A stretch of 64,000 nt of DNA from Leucoraja ocellata. Lineage: Eukaryota. Below the pieces are notes generated by a model. That model saw nothing but the letters and a program-made list of their open reading frames with translations. It ran no database searches and was not told the origin of the DNA. Shown here in pieces: positions 363-56,420 of this stretch (position 1 is the stretch's first letter; each line of letters begins with the position of its first letter). The position numbers and the translations under genes are program-made. Where the stretch lies: positions 4,898,001 through 4,962,000 of the forward strand of contig JAWMAR010000070.1 in assembly GCA_036785375.1 (NCBI GenBank). The letters are read 5' to 3'.

Positions 363-686
363 GGTCAAGGGGAATAACTGGACCCGAGGAGGTGAGGGGA
401 GAGTTGGGGCAGTCGGTCACTGTGGAATGTCAGTATGGTCAGGAATACAGTGACTACAAGAAGCTGTGGAGTAAAGGTTATTATTACCGGTCATCTTCTA
501 TCGTGGTTTCTACTGATGACCCACGACGAGGGAGAACATCGATAAGTGATAACAAAACACAACGGATAGTTTCAGTAACCATCGGCAACCTGGAGAAGAG
601 TGATGAAGGACGCTACTGGTGTGCGATTGCAAAGGGAACATTTTCAAGCGATGAAAGGACCTCCATCTCATTGACGGTTTCTGAAG
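363..686 (+). CDS. Gene A (activating-type CD300/pIgR-like receptor): IgV exon
   Basis: ccacag acceptor ends at 362; GAAG|gtacgt donor; 324 nt, phase 1-1. Encodes GQSVTVEC...KLWSKG...GRTSISD...NLEKSDEGRYWC...LTVSE, a CD300/pIgR-type V-set. The leader and probably further Ig exons lie upstream of the window. Confidence 0.9.
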
Positions 687-2004
687 GTACGTTGACGATC
701 TCTCCTCACTCTCCCAGATGTGAACATTCCAGCCTGGGAATTCCCGGCCTCGGTCCTGACGGTGACTCGGTGCCACATCCCCGGGGGTCGGGGTGAAGGA
801 GGGGGGAGCACATTTACTGGGGCCACACCAAGAGCCCACTGTCCCAGGAGCAGTGTGTGTGGGGGGGGGGGGGGTGTGGGGGGGGGGGCTCATCAATGGG
901 GACCGGCGGTTCTGCTGCTGGCGGCTCATTTCCCCAAAGACGATCGCTCCGGGTCCAGAACCTCTGCCGCCCCTCGCTGGAGCAGGGGAACAGCCAGAAC
1001 CTCTGGTGCCCCCTCACCCTCTCCCCCTGCCCGTCACTGTCACACCCACCACGCACACAACATCTGAAGAAGGGTCCCAACCTTAAACATTGTCAGTTCA
1101 TTCCTTCCACGGATGCTGCCTGACCTGCTGAGTTACTCCAGCACTTTGTGTTTTGTTCAAGATTCCAGCACCTGCAATTCCTTGTGTCTCACAAACTTTG
1201 GTGATTGATGAGCTCAGTTTATTGTTGTCGTCTGTACTGAGGTACAGGGAAAAGCTTTTACCATGTTTCCAATGAGGGCCAAGTCATTGGGTATTTTTAA
1301 GATTCACAGGTTCTGAATTAGTACGGGTGTCAAGTGATATGGGGAGAAGGCAGGAGAATGGGGTTGAGAGGGAGAGATAGATCAGCCGTGATTGAAAGGT
1401 GGAATAGACTCAATGGGCCAAATGGCCTCAATCTGCCCCTATCACTTATGAACTAATGAACTAAGAATCCTCAAGAGATGAGTGATATAGACTTTACACT
1501 GAGCCACACAAACTGTACAAGATGAGATACTCAACGGGTCGGGCAGCTTCTGTGGAGAGAGAACGAGAGTTAATGTTTCAGGTAGATACCTCCAACCAAA
1601 TTGCATTATTTCCAATTCAGTCCGCGTAATGAAAATAGTCCATGGATCGTCCCGCTCCCAAGTTCTTCTCCAACATAGAAGACATGTGCCTAACTCTAGC
1701 AGCAGGCAGATAACACAGCCTGTGGGACTCTGAAGGGCATGAAAGAAGTCTCTGAATGCTTGTGACCAACTGGTGGCATCTTAATGGGTGAGCCTCCGGT
1801 CTAGATCAAGAGGCTTGGTCCAACTATGGTGGCCTCAGAAGGATCTTTGCTCAAATGTATGGATTGGGATTTGAATCCAGGAATCTCCCCACACGGAGCA
1901 AGAGCGCTCCTGACTGAGGCATCTCCCACACATCACTAAAGTGGCACAGAACGTGCTTTCAGACATTTAATGTTCAAAAACGTCATTCACTTTATCTCCA
2001 CAAG

Positions 2005-2146
2005 GGTCTCAAACAAGCCGCCCAGACATGGTCACCACCACCTCTGCAACAATAAACAGAAGGGCTCGGACCACCCGGCCTCAAGATGCACCAACCACCC
2101 GGGCGGCAAGTTCCACTGAGTCTCATGGTTCAACACTTCCAAACAG
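2005..2146 (+). CDS. Gene A: Ser/Thr/Pro-rich mucin-like stalk exon
   Basis: ccacaag acceptor, AACAG|gttagt donor; phase 1 in, 2 out. Encodes GSQTSRPDMVTTTSATINRRARTTRPQDAPTTRAASSTESHGSTLPNR; paralogous to 21815-21968. Confidence 0.85.
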
Positions 2147-2706
2147 GTTAGTAACTCGAAGAGCCAACTCAGCCTCACCTGAGAACAAATTAGTTCAGTT
2201 CAATTCAGCTCAGTTTAAAGATACAGCGTGGAAATGGGCCCTTTGGCCCACCGAGTCCGCTCTGAGCAGCGATCACCCCATACACCAGTTCTGTTCTACA
2301 CACTAGGGGCAACTTACTACAAACCCGCACGTCTTTGGAATGTGGGAGGAAACTGGAGAACCCAGAGTAAACTCTTGCGATCACAGGGAGAACGTACAGA
2401 CTCTGCACTGACAGCACCGGTATCAGGATCGACCCCGCATCTACTGTGCTGTGAGGCAGCAACTCTACCGCTGAGCTGACATCTCAATGGGCGAGCCTCA
2501 TGTCTACATCAAGGGGCTTGGTCCATCTATGGTGGCCTAGGAAGGATCCTTGCTCAAATCTCAGGTTTGGGATTCGAACCAAGAATCTCCCCACACAGAG
2601 CAAGATCGCCCCCAACTGAAGCATCTCCCACACGTCACTAAAGTGGCACAGAACGTGATTATAAACATTTAATGTTCAAAGACTTCATTCACTTTATCTT
2701 CACAAG

Positions 2707-2754
2707 GGTCTCAAACATATCACCCAGATATCCTCACCACTTTGGTGCGTGTGT

Positions 2755-2785
<31 letters not shown>

Positions 2786-3200
2786 TTGCACGGTGGCGCA
2801 GCGGTAGAGTTGCTGCCTTACAATGCTTGTAGCGCTGGAGTCCCTGGTTCGATCCCGACTACAGGTGCTGCCTGTACGGGGTTTGTACGTTATCCCCATT
2901 ACCGCATGGGTTTTCTCTGAGATCTTTGATTTCCTCCAACACTCTAAAGACATACAGGTATGTAGGTAGATTGGATTGGCGTATGTGTCAATTGCCCCTA
3001 GTGTGTGTAGCCTAGTGTTAGTGTGAGAATCGATGGTCGGTGTGGACTCCATGGGCCGTCGGTCCTGTTTCCGCGCTATATCTCAAAATTAAACTAAACT
3101 GGATTAAAATATGGTCACCACCACCTCAGGAACCACCACACCCACTCTGCCTCCGGAAGCATCGACCACCAGGGACTCCTGGTTCATCGCCTCGACACAG
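2707..3200 (+). pseudogene. Relic second stalk exon split by a SINE
   Basis: 2477-2745 is a diverged copy of 1777-2045, including the cacaag|ggtctcaaac acceptor. A SINE follows, then 3111-3200 continues as MVTTTSGTTTPTLPPEASTT and ends at cag|gtcagt. Confidence 0.6.
2788..3100 (+). mobile_element. tRNA-derived HE1/V-SINE-type element (representative of dozens of copies)
   Basis: ggtggcgcagcggtagag A-box-like head, ggttcgatccc B-box and (aaact)n tail. Other copies include 2195-2475(-), 12142-12445(-), 12841-13140(+) and 47050-47340(-). Confidence 0.8.
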
Positions 3201-3828
3201 GTCAGTGACTCAAAGTCCCAGAACTTTGAGAAAGCGTGGCTGATCACATTCCAGTCCATTGATAAATACTCCTTGGCCCTGACTAAAGTCCCTCTGTCCT
3301 TAGTACACCCAGTGGCCCTACCATTGTGAATGTCTACCCTTACATGATGCCAAAAACAAATAACTTCACACTTATCACGGTTCAATACCTGCTGGCATTG
3401 CTCTGCCCAACATACCAGTTGCTTCTTATCCCTCTGTGGTCTATGATTATCGTACTATCCAAAATGAGACAATGTTGGTGTAATCTGTAAACTCGTAAAT
3501 CATACTTCCAACATTAACATCTAAGGCCGGCAGATGGGACTAGTGTAGATAAGGACATCTTGGTCGGCGTGGGGGAAATTGGGTCAAAGGACATGTTTTC
3601 ATGCTCTATGTCTGACCATCAACATGAACATCTAAGTTGTTAATGTATGTAGTCATGGAACACCTCCAAGGAATGGGTGCATGTTGCGATATCAACATCT
3701 CACCAATGTCCACGCCAAAACCTTGGATCACACTGAATGATTCCGTGGGCAATATGATGAAAGAAGATTGCCAGCGTTGATCTGTGGTAACTCTGTGTGG
3801 AAGTAATAATATTTCCTTGGATTTCCAG

Positions 3829-3943
3829 GGACACCATGCTGAACATCGTTTGCCGTGTTTGGGGTGTGTTACGCTGGGTACTCTTTGGAATTCTGCTTCT
3901 CTTCCCGGTTTCCATCAGCTGTGTGACAACTTTGAAAAGGTGA
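3829..3943 (+). CDS. Gene A: transmembrane exon with intramembrane Arg and stop codon
   Basis: ttccag acceptor, phase 2 matching the stalk exon. Encodes RDTMLNIVCRVWGVLRWVLFGILLLFPVSISCVTTLKR then TGA (3941-3943). A possible donor AAAAG|gtgaaa overlaps the stop. Confidence 0.8.
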
Positions 3944-4037
3944 AAGTTTGCAATCTCTTCACTCTGGTGTTCACATTAAATTCAACTGGAAATGATGGGA
4001 ATTTACTTTAGAATTGTAGAGATAAAGTGTGGACATA

Positions 4038-4165
4038 CAGCGCCCTCCATAATGTTTGGGACAAAGACATTTATTTATTTGCCTCTGTATTCCACAATTT
4101 GAGATTTGTAATTGAAAAAATCACATGTGGTTAAAGTGCACATGGTCAGATTTTATTAAAGGGTA
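4038..4165 (+). mobile_element. Tc1/mariner-like terminal fragment inside a SINE
   Basis: TA|CAGCGCCCTCCATAATGTTTGGGACAAAGAC resembles a Tc1 TIR start and interrupts a SINE copy. Confidence 0.55.
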
Positions 4166-7100
4166 TACAGCCAATCAAGTCCGTGCCGACCAATGATCAC
4201 CCCGTACACGCGCACTATCCTACACACGAGGGACAATTTACAATTATACAGAGGCCAATTAACCTACAAAACTACACGTCTTTGGATTGTGGTAAGAAAC
4301 CAGAGCACCCGGAGAAAACCCACGCTGTCACAGGCAGAACACACAAACTCCGTACAGACAGCACCCGTAGTCATGATCAAACCCGGGTCTCTGGCGCTGT
4401 AAGGCAGCAACTCTACCGCTGCGCCACTGTGCCGCCCTGGGTCATTTCCTCGGGTAAAATTTGATGGTGGAGATTATAAACTGTGTTTTAATTGTTATTC
4501 AAGGAAAAAAACAGCCAAGACCTTGGAGATGGGGTCGGCAGTGGTGGAGGAAGGAGAGGAACAGCGCCGGTGAGCTGGCTGGGTGAGGCCTCACCTCGCA
4601 TGGAGACGGCCGTGGGAGGCGAGGGGAAAAGGGTGCGTTGGTGGGTCGAGGTGTGGGCGGAGTGCGAGTGGGCTGCTGGAGGGCCCTGCAGCAGCCGGTG
4701 GATCGGGTGCCGCTGGAGGTCACACAGAGGTCGGGGACGAGCGCGCGGATCGGACACGGCCTGCAGCGGCACGGAGCGGTGGTGGAGGCACCGACAACAT
4801 CGCCAGGCCAGGCCGACCCCTGCAACTCCCACCCAGTGCCGTCTCCACGATAATAGGCCTTTAAACCCAAAATAGGACTCTGCTTTTTGACCAATTTGAT
4901 CTTTAAGAATATAAGATACTGCCAGTAATGTGGCAACTCTTGTGTCTGCATCATATAATCTGCTATTAATACTCTTGTTCTTAGCTTCAGCTGTGCTTAT
5001 ATCAAGTAAGATTTTTACTGAATTCTATACAAAAGAAATGTCACTGTACCCATGTGCATGAGACAATAAAGTACCATTGAACCATTGAACAATGGGGATA
5101 TAAAAACGGTTAAATGATTACGTATTGAACTGTGGACACGCGTTAGAAGAATAAGATAAAAATGAAGGGTAATCGTTATATCAATATTGTTATTCTGACA
5201 GAATGACGCCCAATAATCATTGTTTAGCTTTTCAGGGCCAGAGAGGGTGTTCACCAGTTGGAGATGTACAAATCTCATCACCTTGACCCTACAGCATCAT
5301 CACACCCCACCTATGTCCAATCTACCTTGACCACTACGCGAGGAATTTCTTTAGCCAGAGGGTGATGAATCTGTGGAATTAATTGCCACAGTCGGCTGTG
5401 GAGGCCAAGTCAATGGATATTTTTAAATTGGAGATTGACATGTTTACTCAGGGTGACAAAGGTTGTGGGAAGAAGGCAGGAGAATGGGATGGAGGGGGAA
5501 AGATAGATCATCCATGATTGAATGGCGGAGTAGACTTGATGGAGCAAATGGCCGAATTCTGTAACTATGTTTGCAGACACGTCTGTACATCCTGACATTC
5601 ACCCAAAAGACAGCAGAACATAGACTAGAACTCAAAGCTGGCTTTCCAGAATGTGAACTTTTAACTTTACTACCAATTGAATTGCTGTGTGAAACCCTGC
5701 ACATTGAATAATGATTAAAATAATCCAATGTAATAAAAGATGGCTGAATTTTTGTCATAAAGTCATAAGTGATAAGAGTAGAATTAGTTTGGTTTAGAGA
5801 TAGCGCATGGAAACAGGCCCATTGATCCACCGAGTCCATGCCGACCACTGATCACCTGTACACACTATGTTTAAGAAGGAACAGCAGATGCTGGAAAAGC
5901 GAAGGTAGACAAAAACGCTAAGTTTCTCCAGCATTGTTGTCTACCTGTACACACACTAGTTCTGTTATCCCACTTTCTCATTCATTCCCTACACATTTGC
6001 GACAATCTTGCAGAGGTATTTAACCTACAAACTCGCATGGATTAGGGATGTGGGAGGAAGCCGGAGCACCTGGAGGAAACCCATGAGGTCACAGGTAGAA
6101 CATTCAAACTCCACACAGGCAGCACCCGTAGAGAGGATCGAACCCGGGTCTCTGGTGCTGTGAGGCAGCAGCAAACCGCTGCACCACCGTGCCGCCCTGA
6201 AGAGAGAGAGCAGGCTTGTGAGAGCAGACAGCAGAGCAGCAGGCCAGCTAAATGCCTCATCAGAGTGACAGCACCTTCAGCAACTTTAGACACAGTGCTT
6301 AGAACAAATGGAATCAAGGGATATGGGGAGAGAGCAGGAACTGTGTACTGATTTATGTTGATCTGCCACGATCATATTGAATTGCGGTGCTGGTTCGAAT
6401 GGCCGAATGGCCTACTCCAGCGCCTATTTTCTATGTTTCCACATCAGAGCTCCCTCAGTACAACTCTCCCTCCGTGCTCGGCATTCTGGAGTGGGAACTG
6501 AACCAAAATCTCTCTAACTCACTCAATAGTTTTCACCCACTGAGCTTGCACTGCAGGACCCAACACTGGATCTTGGTGTGGCTCGGTTAGCGTGGTAAAG
6601 TCACACAGGACTCCTGCTAGAAACAGCGTGGGAAATGTTGAACCTAGACCACAGGTCACTCATTGAAAAACCATGTGAAACCCAACCCATTCTGAAAGTC
6701 TCAATGACTTCATTTTTGCATTCAAGGAATCTATGGCAACCTCTTTAGTTTAGCCAATTATAGTCACGTGTACCGCGGTGCAGTGAAAAGCTTTTCTGTG
6801 TGTATGCTACCCAGTCAGTGAAAACACTGTATACAATTACAATCGAGCCGTCCACAGGTACAGGATACAGGGAATAATGTTCAATGCAAGATACAGTCTA
6901 GTAAAATCCGATTAAAGATAGTTCCAAGGTCTCGAATGAGGTAGTTGGGAGGTCAGGACCACTCTGAAGGGTCCCATCGAGAAATGTTACCCATCCTTTT
7001 TGTCCAGAGAAGCTGCTTGACCCGCTGAGATGCTCCAACACTTTGTGCCTATCTGTGGTATAAACCAGCATCTGAAGTTCCTTGTTTCTACATTCCGCCC

Positions 7101-7444
7101 TTGTAGTCTTGTGTGCATCTAATTTGGACACAACAAGTTCCCTTTAAAAAACAACAACTATCCTACAGATTACTTTGATGTCTTTGGTTGATGGGATACC
7201 TCTTGCCCCAGAGCAAGGAGATCCTCCACTATTCTGGTGCGAACCATTACAAAATGCTCTGTTCTTTAGAATTATTTACTCAGCGCCTTGAATGATGTTT
7301 AGCCACGGGCCTCACTGTACTGGGTGAGGTGCTAATGATAAACTGCTCAACACTCGATCGTTCCATCAACAATTGTCGTTGTGTTGTGTGCAGCCAAATT
7401 GCACACAGCTAGCTCCCTGTAGAGAAGGGAGATAACTACCTCCG

Positions 7445-7951
7445 CAGTGGTTCCCAACCTTTTTTTGGCCATGCCCCACCTAATCACCTCTAAAATCCTG
7501 ATGCCCCCCCCCCCCCCCCCCATGTGGTGATATATAATTCTTATTTAAAAAGTGAACTCCGTTTCAGCTGAAGAAGCTTAAAACGCCAATACCTTGGTTT
7601 AAACAAGGTTCAAAAGAACTTGGCATCCATGAAAAAGACAAATGAATTAAAAGAAAGACAGTTAAAGTTCTGAGCAAGAAATTACTAAAAAATTGTAAAA
7701 AAAAAAGAAAAAAACATTAGGTGGTATTAAAATAATAATAATGAAACTACACAATAAAGACCTTTTTTACCCCAAAAAAATTATTTACTCAAAATAACAT
7801 CTGAAACATAAACTACATATGTTTACCTGATGGAAAATCCCAAAAAAAAATCGAACATTTGGACCCAGACCTCCTCAGTCGCACTCAATTGCTCCCCTTA
7901 AAAATCAAATTGCCCCCCTGTGGGGCGTACGCCCCACGTTGGGAACCACTG
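7445..7951. mobile_element. hAT-type MITE
   Basis: TIRs CAGTGGTTCCCAAC...GTTGGGAACCACTG with a degenerate ~8-bp TSD (acctccg/acctacag). The empty site is visible in the paralog near 14459 (atctacagcttgcc). Confidence 0.8.
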
Positions 7952-9067
7952 ACCTACAGCTTGCCTTGTTGATCTTGGTTTGTAGGGAGAACTCTTGCCC
8001 CCAGAACAAGGAGTCTCTCCCCTATTCTGGTGCGAACTATCTCCAGGTGACCTTTCTCAGTGACTTGAGACAGAGCAGACAGCAGATCAGCTAAATGCCT
8101 CGGCAAAGTGACTTCACCTCCAGCAGTGGCGAGCTCCCTCAGTACTGCACTCCCTCAGTCCTCGGGCTTCAGGAGTGGGAGTTGAACCAACAACTCTCTG
8201 ACTCAGATTTTTTTTTTAATTTCAAAATATACTTTATTCAAAAAATAAATATATGCAATACATGATCCTTACAAAACTCCATTCAACATTCTCGGTTGCT
8301 ATGCGTACATGCAATACTGTTTACACAAATTAACCCCACACCTCGCCACTCGTGGACCACTGGCGCGGGATACCTTCCCTTATTTTGAGGTGCATCTCCG
8401 CCACACACTGCCACAAGCTGACCTTTCGCTGGATGTCTACACTGGCCCATGGTGTGGCTCAGTTAGCCTGTGAAAGTCACCCAAGACACCCTCGAGAGAG
8501 AGAGGGTGATGAATCTGTGCCCTAGCCTCAGAATAAAAGGACATTCTTTGAGAAAGGAGATTGGAAGGAATGTCTTTAGTCAGAGGGTGGTGAATCTGTG
8601 GAAATCATTGCGATAGAAGGATGTGGAGGTCAAGTCAATGGATATTTTGAAGGCAGAGATTGATAGATTCTTGATTAGTACGGGTGTCAGGGGTTACGGG
8701 GAGAAGGCAGGAGAATGGGGTCAAGAGGGAAAGATAGATCAGCCATGATTGATTGAATGGCAAAGTGGACTTGATGGGCCGAATGGCCTAATTCTGCTCT
8801 TATAACTTATGAACATGACCTGGATTGATCTGCTCATCTATATTCACACAGAGGTTCCTTGATCGTCAGTGGGGAGGGTGTGCTGCCTGTCCTATACCAC
8901 TGTAGGACATTGGCTATTCGGTCCATCAAGTCTACTCCGCCATTCAATCATGGCCGATCCATCTCTCCCTCCTAACCCAATTTTCCTGCCTCTCCCCATA
9001 ACCTCTGACACCTGTACTAATTAAATTCAGACTAATTAATCCGAAAGAATCCATCTATCCACCGATA

Positions 9068-10836
9068 AAGGTGAATTTATTATGGGGAACAAGGAAATGG
9101 CAGATGAGATGAACAGATACATTGGATCTGTCTTCACTAAGGAGGACACAAACAATCTTCATGATATAGTAGTGGCCAGAGGATCTGGGGGTGACAGAGG
9201 AACTGAAGGAAATCCACAATAGGCAGGAAATGGTATTGGATAGACTGATGGGACTGAAGGCTGCTAAATCCCCAGGGCCTGATGGTCTGCATCCCAGGGT
9301 ACTTAAGGAAGTGACTCTAGAAATCGTGGATGCATTGGTGATAATTTTCTATAGACTCAGGATCCGTTCCTGTGGATTGGAGGGTAGCTAACGTTATCCC
9401 ACTTTTTAAGAAAGGCGGGAGAGAGAAAACGGGGAATTATAGACCAGTTAGCCTGACATCGATGGTGGGGAAGATGCTGGAGTCAATTATAAAAGATGAA
9501 ATAGCCGAACATTTGGATAGCAGTAACAGGATCGGTCCGAGTCAGCATGGATTTATGAAGGGGAAATCATGCTTGCCTTATCTTCTGGAATTTTTTGAAG
9601 ATGTAACTAGGAAAATGGACAAGGGAGAGCCAGTGGATGTAGTGTACCTGGACTATCAGAAAGCGTTTGATAAGGTCCCACATAGGATATTAGTGGGCAA
9701 AATTAGGGCACTTGGTATTGGGGGTTGAGTGCTGACATGGATAGAGAAGTGGTTGGCAGACAGGAAGCAGAGAGTTGGGATTAAATGGTCCCTTTCAGAA
9801 TGGCAGGCAGTGACTAGTGGAGTACCGCAAGGCTCGGTACGGGGACCGCAGCTATTTACAATATGCATCAATGATTTGGATGAAGGGATTGAAAGTAACA
9901 TTAGCAAATTTGCAGATAACACAAAGCTGGGTGGCAGTGTGAACTGTGAGGTGGATGCTATGAGAATGCAGGGTGACTTGGACAGGTTGGAGGAGTGGGC
10001 AGATGCATGGCAGATGAAGTTTAATGCGGATAAATGTTAGGTTATCCACTTTCGTAGCAAAAACAGGAAGGCAGATTACTATCTAAATGGTGTCAAGTTG
10101 GGAAAAGGGGAAGTACAACAGGATCTGAGGGTCCTTGTACATCAGTCTACGAAAGTAAGCATGCTGGTACAGCAGGCATGGAAGAAAGCGAATGGCATGT
10201 TGGCGTTTATAACAAGAGGAATCGAAAATAGGAGGAAAGAGGTCCTTCTGCAGTTGTACAGAGCCCTAGCGAGACCACACCTGGAGTATTGTGTGCAGCT
10301 TTGGTCCCCTAATTTGAGGAAGGACATTCTTGCTATTGAGGGAGTGCAGCGTAGGTTTACAAGGTTAATTCCCGGTATGGCGGGACTGTCATATGCTGAG
10401 AGAATAGAGCAGCTGGGCTTGTACACTCTGGAGTTTAGAAGGTTGAGAGGAGATCACATTGAAACATATGATTGTTAAGGGCTTGGACATGTTAGAGGCA
10501 GGAAACATGTTCCCGATGTTGGGGGAGTCCGGAACCAGGGGCCATAGTTTTAGAATAAGGAGTAAGCCATTTAGAATGGAGACGAGGAAACACATTTTGT
10601 TACAGAGAGTGGTGAGTGTGTAATTCTCTGCAGCAGAGGGCGGTGGAGGCAGGTTCTCTGGATGCTTTCAAGAGAGAGCTAGTTAGGGCTCTTAAACATA
10701 GCGGAGTTAGGGGGTATGGGGAGAAGGCAGGAATGGGTTACTGATTGGGGATGATCAGCCATGATCACATTGAATGGCGGTGCTGGCTCGAGGGGCCGGA
10801 TGGCCTACTCCTGCACCTATTGTCTATTGTCTATTG
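9068..10836 (+). mobile_element. CR1-clade LINE, 5'-truncated, decayed RT
   Basis: KSPGPDG, NYRPVSLTS, YLDYQKAFDKVPH, SGVPQGS, KFADNTK and RPHLEYCVQ motifs with stops; (ctattgt)n tail. Confidence 0.92.
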
Positions 10837-13800
10837 AGTTCCACAGATTCATCACCCTCTGACTAAAGGTTTATTGAGCAATTCTTTGCAATAATGCATC
10901 TGCAACTTACATATCAACAGTGCCTTAAAGGTGTGTAAAAGTCTCGAGATTCTTCACAGCACCATTGTCAGGTGGAATTTGGCATCGAATCACATGCTGG
11001 TTAGATATACAGCATGGAAACAGACCCTTCGGCCCACCGAGTCCATGCTGACCATCGATCACCCGTTCACACTAGTCCCACGTTACACCACGTTTGCATG
11101 CACTCCCTACACATTGAGTGCGATGCGACAAGAGGGCCAATTAACCTACAGAGCCACACGTCTTTGGGATGTGGGAGGAAGCCGGTGCACCCAGAGGAGA
11201 CCCACGCTGTCACAGGGAGAACGTGCAAACTCCTTACTGATAGCGCCGGAGATCAGAATCGAACCGGGGTCTCTGGGGGCGGTTGCAGTTCCACCTACAG
11301 CTAACCCAACCCCACAAATATCACCCAGAACGAGCCTCACCATCTCCAGTGTAGCAGTGTTACAACACAATGTGAGCAACTCACGTCAAAATAGGTTGAG
11401 AAACAGGAAGCCACAAGGAAGTACAGATGCAGTAATATCTGATAGTCTGCTCGGGTAGATTGCAACCCAATGGTGGGAACATTGAATTTTCTAGTTTTAA
11501 GTAACTAACCCACAACAATCCTTTCCACTAACCTCCGTCCCTTTCCACATATATATATCCTTTCTTCCAGCTTCACATTTCATGTCTCTTCTCTCCATAT
11601 CTCACAGCCTTTTATCTTCTTTCCATCTCTGGCCTTCATCCACCCATCAGCCAATAACCCTCCCTCCCTCACCTGTATCCATCTACCACTTGCCAGGTAT
11701 CATCCTTCCCCCACCTCTCTCCCAGCTCTCTCCACCCTACCACAATCAGCCTGAAGAAGGGTCCCAACCCAAAACGTCACCTATCCATGTTCTCTGGAGA
11801 TGCTGCCTGGCCCATTTACTCCAGCATTACATGTCTGTTTTTGAGAAATAGGAAGTTGTGAAGTCGATAAGAAGATTTGAACACCAATGTAAATATTTTG
11901 AAACCAAGTCATTGGTTCTTCGGGTTAGGGTTGTTATGACTATGCAGGGTGGGTTATCAGGTCTGTGAGGTGTGGAGAACTATGGTCAAGTCCAAATCCA
12001 CTCACATGTCACATTGCCAGGGTGAGTGGGGCAGAGCAGGGCGTGGCACTGGCATCAGCGTTAAACTCATAGAGTCATACAGCACTGAAACAGGCCCGTC
12101 TTCCCAACTTGACCATGCTGACCAAACTGCCCACCTGCACTAGTTTAGTATAGAGGTACAGCGTGGAAACTGGCCCTTCGGCCCACCGAGTCCGCACCAA
12201 ACAGCAATCCCCACACATTAACACTATCCTACACGCACTAGGGACTATTTACACTTATTCCAAGCCAACTAACCTACAAACCTATACGTTTTTAGAGTGT
12301 GGAAGGAAACTGAAGATCCCGGAGAAAACCCAGGCGGTCACGTGGAGAACGTACAAACGCCATACAGACAGCACCCGTAGTCGGGATCAAACCCGACTGT
12401 AAGCGCTGTAAGTCAGCAGCTCTACCACTGTTCCACCATGCCGCACTAGTCCACTAGTCCCACTTGCCCCCGTTTGACCCATCTCCTCTTATATCGGTAA
12501 AGATCCAGTTTTTACCCTCAGTCCCGAGGTAGTGTCTCGGCCGGAATACAAACATACACTTTTTGCCTCCACAGATGCTGCTTGAACCGTTGAGTTTTTC
12601 AGGTGTTCTGCCTATTGTTCCAGATTCTAGTATATGCAATCTCTTTTATCTTCTCCCCTCACACAACCCTAATCCTACCTCAACAATATTATCTCACAGA
12701 AGCTGATGGGTACATGGAAGGAACATGTCCAGAGGAGCTAGTGGAGACTGGTACTGGTAACAACATTGAAAAGCATTAGGACAAGGTACGTGGATAGGAA
12801 AGGTTTGTAGGGACAGGGGTCAAATGCAGGCCTGGTTTTTACGGTGGCACAGCAGTAGAGTTGCTGCCTTACATTGTATAACAGCGCCAGATACCCGGGT
12901 TCAATCCTGGCTACAGGTGCTTGTCTGTACATAGTCTGTACTTTCTCCTAGTGACCTGCGTGGGTTTTCTCCGAGAACTTCAGTTTCCTCCCACACTCCA
13001 AAGACGTACAGGTTTGTAGGTTAATTGGGTTGGTGTAAATGTAAACATTTGTGTTGCTGTGCAGGGATCACTGGACGGTGCGGACACAGTGGGCCGGATG
13101 GTTTGTTTCCCCACTGTATCTCTAAACTAAACTAAACTAAAGAGGGACCAGCGTACATGGGACATCTTGATCAGCATTGGGCAAGCTGTTTCCCTGCTGT
13201 ATCACTCTATGATTTTATGAATCACATCCTCAAACTCAGCTTTACCCGGTCTCCGATGCTCAAGTATGTGAATTGTCTTTCAAGGAGTTTATCTGGTGAC
13301 GTGAGTTGACATCAGTTCGCATTTGACAATAGACAACAGACAATAGGTGCAGGGAGTAGGTCATTCGGACCTTCGAGCCAGCATCACCATTCAATGTGAT
13401 CATGGCTGATCATCCATAATCCCCGTTCCTGCCTTCTCCCCTTATCCCCTGACTCTGCTATCTTTAAGAGCCCTATCTAGCTCTCTCTTGAAAGTGTCCA
13501 GAGAACCGGCATCCACCGCTCTCCGAGGCAGAGAATTCCACAGACTCACAACTCACTGGGTGATAAAGTGTTTCCTCATCTCCGTTCCGTTGGTGTCTTT
13601 TTTCTCCTGGGTAATGTTTCAACAGATGAGAAGCTGAGGAAGGCTGGACAAATTAGTGACGCGCATTTTGAGGTGGGTAAACAGATCACAAGTTCACACA
13701 TTCCAGGAGTAGAATTTGGCCATTCGGCCCATCCAGTCTACTCTGCCATTCAAACACGGCTGATCTCTGCCTCCTAATCCCATACAAGTTCAGACACAGT

Positions 13801-14003
13801 GTGCCCGCATTTGGGGGAGGGGCTTGAGGGGGTGGGCAAGGGAATGTTTGCGGTGGTGGACAGAGCGCCAGTCAAGTGGGCAAATGTCACCAGGATGAAG
13901 CAGAGCTTCGAGGAGATGCTCCAATCCAGGCAACTGGAGAGTGTTGTAACCCACTCCTGATAGGGGCATTGTCCGTGGTGAGGAGGCTGGGGGAGGTGAC
14001 AAG

Positions 14004-14092
14004 TGAGTCACCAGGTTAGTCTTGAACCACTGCAAAGTCGTTTCCTGTGTAAACGGAAATTGACTGTTTGACTTCAGTTGTGAATGAGGAAG
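14004..14092 (+). promoter_or_regulatory. Candidate proximal promoter of gene B (AP-1 and ETS/PU.1-like sites)
   Basis: TGAGTCA 14004-14010, TTTCCTG 14041-14047, CGGAAAT 14054-14060 and GAGGAAG 14086-14092, all within about 140 nt upstream of the ATG. Confidence 0.45.
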
Positions 14093-14144
14093 AGGACAAC
14101 TCAAACGCAGTGCAGGGACCAAACCGATCCAACGTAGTCGAGAC

Positions 14145-14241
14145 ATGGCGGTGGGACAGGGAGAATTCACCCACCAGAGATGGCCCAGATCCAGGGGAAC
14201 AGTCGCTCTGTTGGTTCTTGTCGCTGTTGTTCTCACATCAG
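14145..14241 (+). CDS. Gene B (inhibitory receptor): leader/signal-peptide exon
   Basis: gacATGG start; MAVGQGEFTHQRWPRSRGTVALLVLVAVVLTS-G with a hydrophobic core; G|gtaaat donor, phase 1, matching the Ig exons. Confidence 0.8.
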
Positions 14242-16786
14242 GTAAATCGTTGTTTTACAAAATGCTCTGTTCTTTAGAATTATTTACCAACGCCTTGAAT
14301 TATTTGTAACCACAGACCTCTCTGTACTGTGTGGGGAGCTGATGATAAATTGCTCAACACTCGTTAGTTCCTGTAGAGACTTCCATCAGCGGTTGTTGTC
14401 GTGTTGTGTGCAGCCAAGTCGCACACAGCTAGCTCCCTGTGGAGAAGGGAGATAACTATCTACAGCTTGCCTTGCCTTGTGGACCTCATTGAAACTTACT
14501 GAATAGTGAAAGGCCTGGATAGAGTGGATGGGGTGAGGATGTTTACACTAGTGGGAGACTCTAGGACCAGATGTCGCAGCTTCAGAATTAAAGGGCGTTG
14601 CTTTAGGAAGGAGATGAGGAGAAATTTCTTGAGACAGAAACTGTGGAATTCATTGCCACAGATTGTGGAGGCCATCAATAGGTATTTCTAAGGCCGAGAT
14701 GGATAGATTCTTGATCAGTACTGGTGTCAGGAGTCCTGGGGAAAAGGCAGGAGGATTTAGTTGAGAGGGAAAGATAGATCAGCCATAATTGAATGGAGGA
14801 GAGTAGACTTGACGGGCTAAATGGCCTAATTCTGCTCCTAGTACTAATGAACTTATGATCTGTTCTTCAGAATTATTTGCCAGCAGCTTGAATTATTTTG
14901 AGCCACAGATTAGACTACTGGGCTACGAACTGCTAAAGATAAAATGCTTGCAGACATTTTCTTCCCTGCACTAATGACTGTTGTGATGCTGTGTGCTCAG
15001 TGACTTGACAGCAGATCAGCTAAACGCTTTACCCCTTGCATATCTCTTGACTTCCTCCCTCCCTGACTGTGGGTCTGAAGAAAGGTCTCGACCCGAAACG
15101 TCAGCCATTCCTTCTATCCAGAGATGCCCCCTGATCCGCTGCGTTACTGCAGCATTTAGTGTCTATCAAAGACACACGGCACTCCCTCCACGCACTGTAA
15201 TGGGAAATGTTGAACCTAAACCTTAGCACATTCAAAGAAAAAACCTGTGAAAGCCAGCCATTGGGAACAGGCGGGCATCTCAAATGAGGAAGCACCAGAG
15301 TGACTGTCCAATTTAGCATTTGGAGAAGTTGTGGTAATCTCTCCCTTCTGAGAAAAACCAGCTGCCTTACAACAGACTCTGCTGCTCGAGCTATTCTACA
15401 CACTGTGCTTTCCCCAGCCTCTGAGTTCTCCTTCAAGGCATTTGTCTTGTGGCTTGTGAGCCGACCTGGACTGATGTGATGATGTGTCTCCACCCCAGCT
15501 CCTGAATCTGCAGAGTTTCACATGTGTTAGAGTCATAGAGTGATACAGCCTGGAAACAGGCCCTTCGGCCCTTCTTGCCCACACCGGCCAACATGTCTCA
15601 GCAACACTAGTCCCACCTGTCCATGTTTGGTCCAAGTCCCTTCAAACCTGTCCTATCCATGTATCCAGAGGGCCCCACCCTCTCCGGAGACTAAGAAAAG
15701 CAGGTCTCCCTACTGTTCACCTAAGGTCCTACAGGGGCACCATCGAGAGTATACTGACCCACGGCATCACTTCCTGGTTTGGGAGCTGCAGGGCTTATGA
15801 ACAAAAGCAACTTAACAGGATAGTGAAGACAGCCAGTAGGATCATTGGTGCTCCACTCCCTTTCCTGTTGGAGATCTATCAGAAGCGTAACATCAGCAGA
15901 GCCATCTCCATTATTAAGGACCCCCATCATCCATCACACCACATCTCCCTCACTCCCAAATGGGTCCCGCGAGTAAGGGGGCCCCGCGCCAGTGTAATCT
16001 ACTCTCGGCTCAGGTAGATCTACCCCGGGTGGAGAGAGAGTAGAGGGGTGGAGGGGGAAGAAGGGGATAGACGGGGAGCGGGGTGTGAGGGGGAATGGAG
16101 AAGGGGGAGAGGGGGAGGTGGGTCGTTCGCTCACGGCAGCGCTCCTGCCCCTCCAGTCGCCGTGCTTCACACACACAGCCCCGGCTCCACCCCTCTCTCT
16201 CCCCGGGGAGAGGCAGTGAACAATACACAGAGGGCTGGGCCGGGGGTTGGGGCATCGTATACAAACATCGACCTCAGCTCACACCCGTCTGCCCGGACCC
16301 CGGCATCCCTCTCCCTCCCTTCTCTCCTTCCCTCCCTCCTTCCGCTCTTTTCCTTTCTCTCATTCGCTCCATAGCGTCTTTCTCTACTTCCCTCCCTCCC
16401 TCCCACACACACACACACGATGCACAGACAACTAACACACACAACTAAGTTAAGATGGGGTAGAAAGAAACCTTTTCACCCAGAGAGTTGTGAATCTGTA
16501 GAATTCTCTACCACAGAGGGCAGTGGAGGCCAATTCACTGGATGTATTCAAGAGAGAGTTAGATTTAGCTCTTAGGGCTAATGGAATCATGGGAGCAAGC
16601 AGAACTGGGCAGTGCCGGCTCGAAGGGCCGAATCGTCTCCTCCTGCGCCTATTTTCTATGTTTATATGTTTCTATGAATCATCATCTATCCACTTTCTCC
16701 AGAGATAGTTCCTGTCCAGTTTAAGGTTGTGACCTCAATAAGGGGTAGGCCATTGAGGACTCAGATGAGGAAATATCTTTTCACCC

Positions 16787-17340
16787 ATATAACCATATAA
16801 CCATATAACAATTACAGCACGGAAACAGGCCATCTCGGCCCTACAAGTCCATGCCGAACAATTTTTTTTCCCCTTAGTCCCACCTGCCTGCACTCGTACC
16901 ATAACCCTCCATTCCCTTCTCATCCATATGCCTATCCAATTTATTTTTAAATGATACCAATGAACCTGCCTCCACCACTTCCACTGGGAGCTCATTCCAC
17001 ACCACCACCACTCTCTGCGTAAAGAAGTTCCCCCTCATATTACCCCTAAACTTCTGTCCCTTAATTCTGAAGTCATGTCCTCTTGTTTGAATCTTCCCTA
17101 TTCTCAAAGGGAAAAGCTTGTCCACATCAACTCTGTCTATCCCTCTCATCATTTTAAAGACCTCTATCAGGTCCCCCCTTAACCTTCTGCGCTCCAGAGA
17201 ATAAAGACCTAACTTATTCAACCTATCTCTGTAACTTAGTTGTTGAAACCCAGGCAACTTTCTAGTAAATCTCCTCTGTACTCTCTCTATTTTGTTGACA
17301 TCCTTCCAATAATTTGGCGACCAAAATTGTACCCCAAAAT
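16787..17340 (-). mobile_element. CR1-clade LINE 3' fragment
   Basis: VQFWSP...LERRRLRGDLIEVFK...FFTQRVV; (ccatataa)n tail. Confidence 0.85.
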
Positions 17341-18070
17341 TGTACACCCAGAGAGTTCCTCTTTCTCCAGAAATAGTTCCTGTCCCGTTGTGTTACTCCG
17401 GCACTTTGTGTCCTTTTGTACATTAACCAGCATCTGCAGTTCCTTGTTTCTACTAGTTCAATGGGGAAGTGGGTTGTAGTGAGATTGAACACAGGGTGGG
17501 TCAGAGTGAGTGACAGGTTGGCTTCCTGTCACATGACCACCACTCAGGTCAAGCCACGCCCACAGGGAAGGAGGATCTGGGCGCCAGGTAGATTCAGGAG
17601 CAGTGTTCAAGAAGGAACTGCAGATGCTGGAAGATAGATATCGCAGTGGAGTAGACAAAGTGTTCAAGAAGGAACTCAGTTCTGCTTTCACTGGAACTTG
17701 GGGAAAAATCCCGGTGAAATGGGAATTAACACCAGCGGGAAAAGCATTAAAGTGCAACAGGATCTATGCAGAAGAAGAGACACAAAATGCTGGAGTAACT
17801 CAGCGGGACGGGCAGCATCTCTGGAGAGAAGGAAATGGGCGAGGAAACATCACCCGTCGGTTTCTCCAGAGATGCTGCCTGTCCCGCTGAGTTACTCCGG
17901 CTCTTTGTGTCTATCTTTGGTGTAAACCAGCACCTGCAGTTCCTTGCTACACATGATCTATGCAAAACCATGAACCTGTCTGAACAGCACAAATGACATG
18001 TTTTTTATTGTTAAACCACAGCTTGTGTTGCTGCAGTGTGTGTGATCTTTCATCATTAATGTGCCCACAG

Positions 18071-18394
18071 GGTCAAGGGGAAAAACTGAAGTCGAGGAGG
18101 TCTGGGGACAGTTGGGGCAGCGGGTCAAAGTGGAATGTCAGTATGATCGGAAATACAAAGACAACGACAAGCTATGGAGTAAAGGTGATTATTACCAGAA
18201 ATCTTCTATCGTGGTTTCTACTGATGACCCACAACAAGGGAGAACATCGATGACTGATGACAAATCACAACGGATAGTTTCAATCACCATCGACAACCTG
18301 GAGGAGAGTGATGAAGGATACTACTGGTGTGTGATAGTAAAGGGAAACGATTCGCCCATTGAATTGGCCTCCATCTCATTGACGGTTTCTGAAG
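18071..18394 (+). CDS. Gene B: IgV exon D1
   Basis: ccacag acceptor, GAAG|gtaagt donor, 324 nt, phase 1-1. Encodes GQRVKVECQY...KLWSKG...DEGYYWC...LTVSE. Confidence 0.9.
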
Positions 18395-19201
18395 GTAAGT
18401 TGCCGATCTCTCCTCACTCTCCCAGATGTGAAAATTCCAGCCTGTGAATTCCCGGCCTCGGTCCTGACGGTGACTCGGTGCCACATGCCCGGGGGTCGGG
18501 GTAAGGGGGTGGGGTGGATAACTCACTTACTGGGGTCCCGGCCCGTGGGGCCACACCAAGAGCTCACTGTCGCTGGAGCAATATGGGGGGGGGGGGGGCT
18601 GTCAGACACCAGCCCCACGGAAGGTCCCATCTACCGGCGGTTCTGTTGCTGACGGCTCATTTCCACGAAGACGATCGCTCCGGGACCAGAACCTCTGCCG
18701 CCCCCTCACTGGGGCAGGTGGTGGGAAACCCGGGTGGAGATAGGAGTCAATGGGGGAGGGGGCAGGTTAGTAGAAGATACTTAAAATTAGAGAACCAACG
18801 TTCAAACCGTTGGGTTGTAAACTACCTGAGCCCAATATGAGGTGCGGTTCCTCCAATTTGCATGTGGCCTCACTCTGGCAATGGAGGAGGCCCAGGACAG
18901 AAAGGTCAGTGTGGGAATGGGAAGGGACATGGACAGGGTTGGCAACCGGGAGATCAAGAATGGTCCCGACCCGAAAAGGACACCTATCCATTTTCTCCAG
19001 AGATTCTGTCTGATCCGCGGAGTTACTCCAGCACTTTGTGTCTATCTTTGGTGTAAACCAGCACCTGCAGTTCCTTGCTACACATGATCTATGCGAAACC
19101 ATGAACCTGTCTGAACAGCACAAATGACATGTTTTTTATTGTTAAATCACAGCTAGTGTTACTGCAGTGTGAGTGATCTTTCATCATTAATGTGCCCACA
19201 G

Positions 19202-19527
19202 GGTCAAGGGGAATAACTGGACCCAAGGAGGTGAGGGAGAGTTGGGGCAGTCGGTCACTGTGGAATGTTGGTATGATCAGAAATACAAAGACAACGACAA
19301 GCGATGGAGTAAAGGTGATTATTACCAGAAATCTTCTACCGTGGTTTCTACTGATCACCCACGACTAGGGAGAACATCGATGACTGATGACAAAAAACAA
19401 CGGATAGTTTCAGTCACCATCAACAACCTGGAGGAGAGTGATGAAGGACTCTACTGGTGTGTGCTGATTGTAAAGGGAAATCATTCGCCCATTGAATCTG
19501 CCTCCATCTCATTGACGGTTTCTGAAG
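19202..19527 (+). pseudogene. Gene B: IgV exon D2 with a 1-nt frameshift (pseudo-exon or assembly error)
   Basis: Splice sites intact, length 326 nt. Reads gtgagggagag where paralogs read gtgaggggagag (one G missing near 19235). The spliced frame reaches TAG near 19366; the Ig frame is open from 19242. Confidence 0.75.
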
Positions 19528-20334
19528 GTAAGTTGATGATCTCTCCTCACTCTCCCATATGTGAAAATTCCAGCCTGTGAATTCCCGGCCTCGGTCCTGA
19601 CGGTGACTCGGTGCCACATCCCCGGGGGTCGCGGTAAGGGGGTTGGGTGGATAACTCACTTACTGGGGTCCCGGCCGTGGGGCCACATCAAGAGCTCACT
19701 GTCCCAGAGCAGTATGGGGGGGGGGGGGGGGGGACTGTCAGACACCAGCCCACGGAAGGTCCCATCTACCTGCGGTTCTGTTGCTGACGGCTCATTTCCA
19801 CGAAGACGATCGCTCCGGGACCAGAACCTCTGCCGCCCCCTCACTGGGGCAGGTGGTGGGAAACCCGGGTGGAGATAGGAGTCAATGGGGGAGGGGGCAG
19901 GTTAGTAGAAGATACTTAAAATTAGAGAACCAACGTTCAAACCGTTGGGTTGTAAACTACCTGAGCCCAATATGAGGTGCGGTTCCTCCAATTTGCATGT
20001 GGCCTCACTCTGGCAATGGAGGAGGCCCAGGACAGAAAGGTCAGTGTGGGAATGGGAAGGGACATGGACAGGGTTGGCAACCGGGAGATCAAGATGGTCC
20101 GACCCGAAAAGGACACCTATCCATTTTCTCCAGAGATTCTGCCTGATCCGCCGAGTTACTCCAGCTCTTTGTGTCTATCTTTGGTGTAAACCAGCACCTG
20201 CATTCCTTGCTACACATGATCTATGCAAAACCATGAACCTGTCTGAACAGCACAAATGACATGTTTTTTTATTGTTAAACCACAGCTTGTGTTGCTGCAG
20301 TGTGAGTGATCTTTCATCATTAATGTGTCCACAG

Positions 20335-20658
20335 GGTCAAGGGGAATAACTGGACCCGAGGAGGTGAGGGGAGAGTTGGGGCAGTCGGTCACAGTGGAAT
20401 GTCCGTATGGTCGGGAATACAGTGACAACGACAAGCGATGGAGTAAAGGTTATTATTACCGGTTTTCTTTTACCGTGGTTTCTACTGATGACCCACAATA
20501 TAGGAGAACATCGATGAGTGATGACAAAACACAACGGATAGTTTCAGTCACCATCAACAACCTGGAGAAGAGTGATGAAGGACTCTACTGGTGTGTGATT
20601 GTAAAGGGAATATTTTCAAGCAATGAAAGGACCTCCATCTCATTGACGGTTTCTGAAG
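20335..20658 (+). CDS. Gene B: IgV exon D3
   Basis: ccacag acceptor, GAAG|gtacgt donor, 324 nt; closest paralog of the gene A exon 363-686. Confidence 0.9.
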
Positions 20659-21814: not shown

Positions 21815-21968
21815 GATCTCAAACAAGCCGCCCAGACATGGTCAGCACCACCTCTACAACAATAAGCACAAAGGCTTCCACCACAACTCTGACCACCATG
21901 CCTCAAGGTACACCAACCACCAAGGCAGCAAGTTCTACTGAGGCTTCTAGTTCAACACCTCCAAACAG
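21815..21968 (+). CDS. Gene B: mucin-like stalk exon
   Basis: Phase 1 in, 2 out. Encodes GSQTSRPDMVSTTSTTISTKASTTTLTTMPQGTPTTKAASSTEASSSTPPNR. Confidence 0.87.
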
Positions 21969-22561: not shown

Positions 22562-22671
22562 GGGCACATTTCAATGGCAGCTTGTTCTATCGATCGCCTT
22601 GACAATTGTCTTTCTTCTGTTCATCGCTGGCATTATCCTATGTGTAAAAATGAGGCAGAGAAAGAAAACTG
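22562..22671 (+). CDS. Gene B: transmembrane exon (uncharged TM)
   Basis: ttttgcag acceptor, G|gtaagt donor; phase 2 in, 1 out. Encodes RGTFQWQLVLSIALTIVFLLFIAGIILCVKMRQRKKT with a basic stop-transfer cluster. Confidence 0.88.
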
Positions 22672-24327: not shown

Positions 24328-24380
24328 GCTCAAATGGACAGAGAATTATGAGTCAGCAAAATCCAGCAGACAGTTTCAAG
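24328..24380 (+). CDS. Gene B: cytoplasmic exon 1
   Basis: ttttcag acceptor, AAG|gtaagg donor; phase 1 in, 0 out. Encodes GSNGQRIMSQQNPADSFK. Confidence 0.78.
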
Positions 24381-25037: not shown

Positions 25038-25193
25038 GAAACCCCTGTCATTTATACCACCGTGACAACCCGTCCTCCAGCTAGCACGGATAATACTTAC
25101 ATGAACCTTCAGGATCTGAACACACAAGGACAAGCCAAGAGGCAAGGTGCCGCAGAAGTTGTGTACGCAACAATTCTCACTGATAATAATTAA
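25038..25193 (+). CDS. Gene B: terminal ITIM exon
   Basis: Encodes ETPVIYTTVTTRPPASTDNTYMNLQDLNTQGQAKRQGAAEVVYATILTDNN*. ITIM-like VIYTTV and VVYATI plus YMNL; phase 0 matches the previous exon. Confidence 0.85.
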   Translation, partial: ETPVIYTTVTTRPPASTDNTYMNLQDLNTQGQAKRQGAAEVVYATILTDNN

Positions 25194-26469: not shown

Positions 26470-27985
26470 GGTTTTGCGAATGGACGTAAAACACAGAACT
26501 AAAGAATTTGGTGGATTAACACTGCCTTATTTTTTGTATTATTATTGGGCAGCAAATGGCAAAAATGTGATTCACCTGTTGGACAACTCTGCCCAGAGAG
26601 AGGATTGCTCCCCTTTTAATATAGGAGCAATCCTTTCACACCAATAAAATTGAATAAAAAATACAGTAAAAATCCAATTATTCATAGTACAATTAGAATT
26701 TGCAATCAATTAAAATTAACCTTAAAATTAAAAGAAACCTATCATCTATTTCCCCCAATAGATAATAATCCGTCATTTAAACCATCTATTATGGATAAAT
26801 CATTTACATACTGGGAAATAATAGGAATTAAAACGTTTGGAGACATGTATGAATTTTTTTTTTTTTTTATCATTCCAACAACTACAACTTAAATACAATC
26901 TGAGAAGTAAACAATATTTTAAATATTTTGAAATCCATGACTATTTGGAAAAATATACCCAAGAATATCAAAATTTGTGTCCAGGCCTATTAGACGAAGC
27001 ATTGAATATAAAGGAGGAATCAATGAATTTAATATCATACTTGTATAATATCATCCTAAACATAGAAATACCATCATCCGAATTAGAAGAGATTGGGAAC
27101 AAGAACTAGCTATACAAATTTCGAAAGAGAGGTGGGATAAACACTTGTAAAATGTGCACAAATGCTCGATCAATGTAAGACATATTCTAAACCAAAACTT
27201 TACATAGACTATATTACTCAAAAACTAAAACTTTTTCCAAATGTCTCCCCCATCTGTGATAAATGTCTATCCCAAGAAACAACCAACTATAGCACATTCC
27301 TTTGTTTTTTTAATTAAAATCCAAACACTTTGGAATGAAATCTTTGAAATTTTTTCAACATTTTTTCATATAAAACTGAAACCGAATGCAGAAATGATTA
27401 TTTTTGGAACGATGGAAGCCAGCCTTGAGCTGACTTTGTTCCAAAAGAGCTTCCTTAATTACGGCTTAATAATGGCAAAAAAACCTATACTTAAATTCTG
27501 GAAAAAAGCTCCCACACCAACGATAAATATGTGGATTTGAAATGTGTCCGAAATGTTACACCTGGACGACATCAGATTCCTCCTAGCAGGCAAATCAGAT
27601 CATTTCCAAATGATTTGGTCTCCATTTATCGACTTATTACAAGTATCGGGTGCAATAACTTTGAGAATAAACAGTTTCAGGACCTGGTGAGGGGTGTGGG
27701 AAGTTACGAAGTAGGTATTTCCCTTTTATCTTATTTTCCTTTCTTATATTTTCTGTTCTCTATTTTTCTCTTTCTTTTTCTTTTTATCTCTTTTTTGTGT
27801 TTTACGTTCCTACGGGTCTCTCTTGATCACTCTTTCACGCACTTACTATCCTATCTAACTCTCGTTCCATTCCTTCTTTTTAAAGTTTAAAGCAAGAAGT
27901 GGTACAGGAAATGTATTATGTTATTTTTGGCTTATATCACTGTAATGTGCATTACTTCTAATAAATAAAATATTTTAAAAAAAAC
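26470..27985 (+). mobile_element. L1-clade LINE 3' fragment
   Basis: AT-rich; GGLTLPYFLYYYWAA and IAHSF...W...ILKFWK fragments typical of fish L1 ORF2 C-terminus; ends in AATAAA plus an A-rich tail. Confidence 0.8.
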
Positions 27986-33445: not shown

Positions 33446-33509
33446 ATGGACCTCTCTCTCTCTGTGACCACGATGTTTTATATTCTGCTGTTTCGGACTG
33501 TGACTTCAA
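33446..33509 (+). CDS. Gene C (inhibitory, 2 IgV): leader exon
   Basis: aacATGG start; MDLSLSVTTMFYILLFRTVTS; A|gtaagt donor, phase 1. Confidence 0.8.
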
Positions 33510-34989: not shown

Positions 34990-35298
34990 GTTCCTTAGCA
35001 AACCTTCCCTTGATGGTGATAAGAGCTGGCGAGGGAAAAACAGTGACTATAGAATGTCCACACGCTCAGAAAACAGGACCTGTCAGCTGGTGCAAAGCCT
35101 ATTCTGGAAAAGGATGCAATGCAATAGTCGACACTGAGAAAGAAGACAGTAGTGGAAGGATATCAATGAGAAGAATCAATGGGTCTGATTTTGTAATAAG
35201 TCAACTTCAGAAGAATGATACAGGAACATACTGGTGTGGAAAAAGTCAGGCAAATAAAATCCATGTTTCAGATATTGTCATGCTGGATGTTTTCACAG
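34990..35298 (+). CDS. Gene C: IgV exon D1
   Basis: gacag acceptor, ACAG|gtaaga donor; 309 nt, phase 1-1. Encodes GKTVTIEC...WCKAYSGKGC...GRISM...DTGTYWC and retains the Cx7C C-C' pair. Confidence 0.9.
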
Positions 35299-36631: not shown

Positions 36632-36946
36632 CAGATTCACGGATACTAAACCGTACCACAGTCAAGGGCGTGAAGGGCAATGCCACCACTATACACTGCC
36701 GGTACAAGGCCCAATTTGAAGCATATGTGAAATTCTTGTGTAAAGTCGTCTCTGTGAATAGTTGCAGCATCATAGCGAGGCCTCATGACTACAACAGCAG
36801 CAAATTGTCAATCAGTGCGGACAAAGTCAACAACTTTGCCATCACGATCAGGCACACTGATGAAGGAGATGTGGGGGAATATTGGTGTGGGGCCAGGACA
36901 CAAGTCGACTTTGAGATCTCACAGGTTCAAACCGTGATGTTTAAAG
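36632..36946 (+). CDS. Gene C: IgV exon D2
   Basis: ttacag(cag) NAGNAG acceptor, AAAG|gtataa donor; 315 nt. Encodes GNATTIHCRY...KFLCKVVSVNSC...DVGEYWCG. Confidence 0.87.
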
Positions 36947-37623: not shown

Positions 37624-37663
37624 GAACGATAACAAAACCAGGGGCACCAAGCAACAAAGCAAG
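37624..37663 (+). CDS. Gene C: short stalk exon
   Basis: cctcag acceptor, AG|gtaaga donor; phase 1 in, 2 out, exactly bridging D2 and the TM exon. Encodes GTITKPGAPSNKA. Confidence 0.75.
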
Positions 37664-39888: not shown

Positions 39889-39922
39889 GTCAGGATTGAA
39901 CCTGGGTTTCTGGGCTGTGTAA

Positions 39923-56165: not shown

Positions 56166-56420
<255 letters not shown>

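Follow-up and report, generated by a model that had tools for sequence, protein, structure and literature searches.

The window analysed here, 64,000 nucleotides (nt) of the skate Leucoraja ocellata (contig JAWMAR010000070.1, positions 4,898,001 to 4,962,000), carries two adjacent receptor genes, A and B, whose four immunoglobulin (Ig) V-set exons encode CD300/pIgR/TREM-like domains with serine in place of both cysteines of the C-C' disulfide. Gene A consists of a V exon, a stalk, a transmembrane exon bearing an Arg and a 22-residue tail that lacks tyrosine, its leader lying beyond the window. Gene B runs from a leader through three V exons, a stalk and a neutral transmembrane segment to a tail with motifs of the ITIM type (tyrosine-based inhibitory motifs of immunoreceptors; Table 1). 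The two genes show the features expected of paired receptors, being neighbours with near-identical ectodomains, A with an Arg in the membrane and a short tail and B with an ITIM tail; judged by these signalling motifs they are an activating/inhibitory pair. Their nearest named homologues come from the skates Rhinoraja, Leucoraja and Amblyraja (75-82% identity) and carry the automatic NCBI labels 'pIgR-like' or 'CMRF35-like'.

Table 1. Exons of genes A, B and C in the window (positions counted from its first letter).
Feature	Position	Strand	Remarks
Gene A, V-set Ig exon A1	363..686	+	Ser codons 470-472 and 494-496 in place of the C-C' Cys pair; Pfam V-set E 9e-14
Gene A, Ser/Thr-rich stalk exon	2005..2146	+	AG/GT, in frame
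Gene A, transmembrane exon, Arg within LRW motif	3829..3939	+	Putatively of activating type; same transmembrane segment in skate homologues P0005, P0007, P0008
Gene A, short last exon, without tyrosine motif	4504..4573	+	Resembles the Leucoraja P0005 tail
Gene B, leader exon	14145..14241	+	Resembles the N-termini of P0004-P0008
Gene B, V-set exon B1	18071..18394	+	Ser codons 18178-18180 and 18202-18204
Gene B, V exon B2	19202..19527	+	Ser codons 19308-19310 and 19332-19334; out of frame as assembled
Gene B, V-set exon B3	20335..20658	+	Ser codons 20442-20444 and 20466-20468; nearest copy to A1 (91.7% nt)
Gene B, stalk exon	21815..21968	+	
Gene B, uncharged transmembrane exon	22562..22671	+	
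Gene B, first cytoplasmic exon	24328..24380	+	
Gene B, last exon	25038..25193	+	ITIM-type motifs VIYTTV and VVYATI plus one YMNL; same motifs in Leucoraja P0004
Gene C, V exon 1	34990..35298	+	C-C' pair kept (35091-35093, 35115-35117); distant paralogue, comparison only
Gene C, V exon 2	36632..36946	+	C-C' pair kept (36739-36741, 36763-36765); comparison only

Exactly four W-S-K-G V-domain motifs were found in a six-frame scan of the window, all on the forward strand and with their Trp at 467, 18175, 19305 and 20439. One is WSKGYYYRSS, two are WSKGDYYQKS and one is WSKGYYYRFS; W+1 (counted from the Trp) is encoded by AGT and W+9 by TCT in 4/4 exons, and either codon is one base away from a Cys codon. 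The motifs, positions and codons given in the original prediction, which was made by a model from the letters of the window, are thereby reproduced for all four domains, as is its statement that both V domains of gene C keep Cys at the two positions (Trp codons 35088 and 36736). The prediction had also equated these positions with the second disulfide of the family. Human pIgR D1 and D3 place both Cys opposite the A/B Ser in a phmmer alignment that is gapless across the segment, and the same register is obtained with shark orthologues that keep the pair; by alignment, it is confirmed that the two Ser occupy the C-C' cysteine positions of the family. The domains have the V-set Ig features of CD300/pIgR/TREM-like receptors (the B-F disulfide and D-x-G-x-Y-x-C), with C22, Y84 and C86 invariant and with A1, B1 and B3 above the Pfam V-set cut-off. 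pIgR and CD300lf lead the PDB sequence search and CD300lf leads the fold searches. Two features of strict CD300 domains are absent from A/B: the strand-C motif YWCR, where LWSK or RWSK stands, and the second disulfide W-C-x7-C, which is Ser/Ser in 4/4 domains.

The four A/B Ig exons sit in tandem repeat units and are 84-92% identical. Since their flanking introns are 93-98.5% identical, they are, on sequence comparison, recent tandem copies. The first 360 nt of the window lie within the same kind of repeat unit that spaces the Ig exons of gene B (they match 18841-19853), and because the window begins inside such a unit, more Ig exons of gene A probably lie upstream. Variable columns are more frequent in the exons (65/323) than in the introns (33/329; Fisher p 4e-4), and the changes among the four copies are concentrated in the BC, C-C', C'-D and FG loops. 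The ratio of nonsynonymous to synonymous divergence (dN/dS) ranges from 1.8 to 4.4 in 6/6 exon pairs (pN 0.143 vs pS 0.056; 1/2000 bootstraps at or below zero), as obtained by simple counting over non-independent pairs that include the frameshifted B2. By these counts the ectodomain of the A/B pair is under diversifying selection. The Ser codons themselves, which the original prediction had singled out as invariant while their neighbours vary, are indeed identical in all four copies; however, 58 of the 96 aligned codons are invariant, so that two named codons would be invariant by chance with P about 0.36, and their invariance was rejected as a sign of selection. Mosaic exchange among the exons was also considered; of 28 informative sites 21 unite A1 with B3, and the 7 that conflict are too few for mapping conversion tracts.

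Exon B2 (326 nt) breaks the reading frame if it is included, and gene B stays open if it is skipped. Compared with A1 and B3 its G run at 19235-19237 is one base shorter, and B2 also has one extra codon; in-frame AG dinucleotides occur slightly downstream (19227, 19230 and 19239), without a pyrimidine tract. Because a Leucoraja homologue with three domains and nearly the same tail as gene B exists, the break may be an assembly error in the G run; the alternative is a dead exon. That the Ser codons as a whole are errors or products of pseudogene decay, a view for which the frameshift in B2 could be cited, is extremely improbable, as annotated proteins from three further skate genera carry the same residues and A1, B1 and B3 lie in open, correctly phased gene models. 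In gene A, a second, diverged stalk-like exon at 2707-3201 is seemingly split by a GT repeat and an insert resembling a short interspersed nuclear element, and is probably dead.

In a phylogeny of homologous domains the four window domains fall into a skate clade of 22 rows (support 100/99), none of which has both Cys (0/22). The first position in these rows is Ser in 18, Arg in 2, Cys in 1 and Thr in 1, and the single-Cys domain, from Amblyraja, nests within the clade. Ser stands at W+9 in 21/22 and Tyr at W+6 in 21/22, and the most variable columns are W+7 (10 residue types) and W+8 (9). On this phylogeny, the Ser/Ser of A and B is shown to be one state inherited from the skate ancestor of the exon, not four events. 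A second Ser held amid the most variable columns, W+7 and W+8, would fit a loop that is used as a binding surface.

To place the skate state among other elasmobranchs, homologues were collected by searches over named proteins together with one exhaustive search. After removal of three amniote-pIgR-like proteins, two duplicate domains and P0176 (whose domain repeats P0170), and leaving out 8 paralogous rows, the orthogroup of A/B comprised 70 distinct domains from 19 named species and the window. Both Cys are present in 27 of these, the first Cys only in 18, neither in 25 and the second only in none, and 9 of the 19 named species own at least one domain without the pair. The half-lost state, with the first Cys alone, was seen in five species (Narcine, Pristiophorus, Heptranchias, Scyliorhinus canicula and the one Amblyraja domain), and Arg occupies the first position in Pristis, Heterodontus and S. 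canicula. The pair is kept in stingrays, Carcharodon, Cetorhinus, Mustelus and carpet sharks. A loop-masked tree of 35 rows requires 5 state changes and rejects a single clade of losers in the approximately unbiased (AU) test (p-AU 5e-7), where the 35 rows were chosen and the trait served to define the tested group once an earlier tree had been seen. Because 18 of the 70 domains keep the first Cys alone and none the second alone, and because one clade of losers is rejected, loss of the C-C' disulfide in this elasmobranch orthogroup is, as read from the aligned domains, stepwise and recurrent.

This pattern bears directly on the form in which the loss was originally proposed, namely a single paired, fixed event that releases a flexible, Tyr-rich loop and sets a distinct subfamily apart. 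The skates agree with it in that the pair is missing throughout their clade and Ser at W+9 and Tyr at W+6 are nearly constant, so 'fixed' stands for skates; 'paired' does not, given the 18 half-lost domains. The subfamily fails as well, since the losers do not form one clade and W-S-x7-S recurs in three proteins of a separate, unrelated clade. Ser/Ser was likewise discarded as a clade marker, being no more than a majority state in skates and recurring in that unrelated clade. Outside the orthogroup, among 422 domains (467 less 45 that aligned poorly), 375 have both Cys, 39 neither, 5 the first only and 3 the second only; loss of the pair is thus common in the orthogroup but a minority condition outside it, and the counter-evidence named with the original prediction, a Ser/Ser state widespread across the family, is present in part. 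Loops without the bond do hold more Tyr on average (means of 2.2 and 1.9, vs 0.9 with the bond), in rows that are related and give no independent test. However, Heterodontus and Mustelus combine Tyr-rich loops (three Tyr) with a pair that is intact.

The proposed freeing of the C-C' loop is not supported by the structural comparison that the prediction had called for. An AlphaFold model of A1, built with a 51-row alignment, has a mean predicted local distance difference test score (pLDDT) of 96.7, and residues 31-50 score 97-98, with the C-C' loop ordered. Its best fold match is CD300lf (Z 19.9, root-mean-square deviation 1.3, 105 aligned residues, 40% identity), and human pIgR D2, which has no C-C' bond, is reported to keep its C/C' geometry unchanged (PMC4786434). 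The modelled fold of A1 remains CD300lf-like and ordered without the bond. The half-lost states in five species and the rejection of one clade of losers largely refute the loss as originally proposed, which we regard as very unlikely.

The half-lost domains raise another question, whether a Cys retained alone might act at the surface as a thiol through which dimers form or partners bind, with Ser/Ser as the monomeric end state. In Narcine bancroftii (P0009 and P0159-P0161) all 14 distinct domains have an unpaired C-strand Cys and no partner Cys in the loop, and the Amblyraja domain within the skate clade likewise keeps its first Cys. The Narcine rows are near-identical repeats and isoforms, hence non-independent, and a free Cys is absent from the domains of the window itself. 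We consider a thiol function quite improbable.

A more probable cause would lie in the ligand pocket. The phosphocholine cleft of CD300lf is described as having the Cys36-Cys44 disulfide as its floor, together with Tyr34, Trp89, Gln41, Arg42 and Met100, with Asp98 as a Ca2+ ligand (PMC6166816). In the orthogroup the position of Tyr34 (W-1, by offset) is Tyr or Phe in 1/70 domains and that of Asp98 (C+8, by offset) is Asp in 0/70, in both cases irrespective of the bond. Tyr or Phe at W-1 is found in 293/375 of the outside domains that keep both Cys. A paralogous shark lineage (P0016 and P0162, from Heptranchias and Cetorhinus) combines the Tyr with the Cys pair and the Asp at C+8 in 4/4 domains, and by these residues its members are the strongest candidates for shark equivalents of a lipid-binding CD300.

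We therefore propose, with a probability of about 0.6, that A and B are recently multiplied, diversifying paired receptors of an orthogroup that dispensed with the C-C' bond after losing a CD300lf-type pocket. The Ca2+/lipid-headgroup pocket would already have been given up in the orthogroup ancestor, and since the bond forms the floor of that pocket it would have become dispensable; absence of the Tyr and Asp probably made it so. About five state changes of the dispensable disulfide would then have followed within the orthogroup. As 18 domains have the first Cys only and none the second only, the C'-strand Cys may have been the earlier loss, that of the C-strand Cys coming afterwards or not at all, with Ser at the C' position perhaps retained as a small placeholder. 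The C-C', BC and FG loops would diversify for binding a changing ligand, putatively and most likely a microbial one.

Several points weigh against this proposal, beginning with the limits already attached to the dN/dS values and to the Narcine rows. The tree cannot separate loss from regain, the alignment behind the A1 model contained bond-bearing relatives, possibly biasing its loop, and the CD300lf positions were mapped by offset from Trp or Cys and not by residue alignment. Asp one position off, at C+7, occurs in 13/70 orthogroup domains, none of which has the complete pair, and 20/22 skate domains continue with a conserved Glu, so that a modified metal site may exist. An association between the disulfide and an Asp near C+8 was also sought outside the orthogroup and was not significant (170/375 with the pair vs 13/39 without; p 0.18).

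It was also considered that the loss might be adaptive, with removal of the bond reshaping the C-C'/FG cleft and being repeatedly selected for pathogen escape or for a change in the specificity of the paired receptors. Murine norovirus is reported to bind the CD300lf cleft through lipid mimicry (PMC6166816); the loss is repeated within one orthogroup; and in skates the most variable columns flank the second Ser. A further case is Heterodontus francisci, where P0070 and P0170 have near-identical V domains with 5 differences, two of which are the Cys pair: the ITIM-tailed form keeps both Cys and the form with an Arg in the transmembrane segment has neither. These are predicted, isoform-labelled proteins that may derive from one merged gene model. 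Across species the disulfide state was not seen to follow whether a receptor is activating or inhibitory, and both the inhibitory and the activating skate gene lack the bond. S. canicula mixes the states, with one Arg-transmembrane form that has the pair, another without it and an ITIM form that is half-lost. Furthermore, stingray domains with an intact pair also have diverse loops, and purging of an unpaired Cys would suffice for the double loss. On balance we think adaptive loss unlikely. Its boldest form, in which elasmobranch paired receptors use the C-C' disulfide as a selected on/off switch, toggled repeatedly in a pocket-less orthogroup to remodel a pathogen-exploited cleft, even between the 95%-identical Heterodontus partners, is a little more doubtful still.

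Genes A and B can be compared with better known systems. With CD300lf/CLM-1 (mouse; IREM-1 in human) A/B have in common the x7 spacing, the F-strand Trp, the FG-loop Lys (19/22 skate domains) and, in gene B, the arrangement of stalk, transmembrane segment and ITIM tail. They differ in lacking the C-C' disulfide and an in-register Asp98, in having Leu or Arg for Tyr34, and in that skate homologues have up to 3-4 tandem V domains. Primate CD300A and CD300C resemble A/B as an inhibitory receptor and a charged-transmembrane partner with ectodomains reported to be homogenised by conversion, and CD300C is described as having lost its second disulfide in Lemuriformes and Lorisiformes (PMC12447643). 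However, the charged residue is Glu in CD300C and Arg in gene A, and the skate genes add tandem exon multiplication and dN/dS >1 between copies. pIgR D2 also lacks both C-C' cysteines, but its replacements are other than Ser/Ser and it is one domain of an Ig transporter. Among fish CD300-like domains without the inner pair, though in teleost families, are 39/127 'atypical' NILT domains of zebrafish (bioRxiv 10.1101/2022.04.21.489081) and the N-domain of carp SITR, reported to have a single Cys pair (PMC3031540). The MDIRs of the clearnose skate are described in the latter source as a multigene activating/inhibitory family resembling CD300, TREM and pIgR (PMC3031540). No MDIR-named or clearnose skate protein was found among the named homologue search matches for A/B.

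Further along the window, gene C (33446-44501, +) is intact and of inhibitory type, with two V domains and three cytoplasmic tyrosine motifs. Both V domains join a Stegostoma protein, on long branches, outside the A/B orthogroup, and as a distant paralogue gene C is a weak comparator. The only neighbouring gene identified is represented by 3' exons of an AdoHcyase-family gene (56223-58708, -; Pfam PF05221). It looks AHCYL1/2-like; human AHCYL1 lies near the CD300-like TMIGD3, a possible synteny lead. Degenerate retroelement-like remnants, classed by eye, form an inverted-orientation pair at 9069-10827 (+) and 29158-30605 (-), and another occupies an AT-rich stretch at 26600-27950.

Earlier accounts of the same loss in pIgR D2, strepsirrhine CD300C and the NILT/SITR domains of fish make the bare fact unsurprising; it is a trait that recurs in rapidly evolving receptors, not a one-off invention. 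The elasmobranch pattern of disulfide states was not found described in the literature searched, to which Cannon et al. 2006 (MDIR) did not belong. What the orthogroup adds is the complete series, from Cys/Cys through Cys/Ser and Arg/Ser to Ser/Ser, in close orthologues, together with a near-isogenic pair, amid positive selection, and because this series and pair exist the role of the bond can be tested. Were the on/off-switch view true, sharks and skates would supply natural matched pairs for probing a hallmark bond of the family. That paired receptors under positive selection lose the bond recurrently and in steps is a modest lead, and it marks the A/B-type genes as candidate arms-race receptors.

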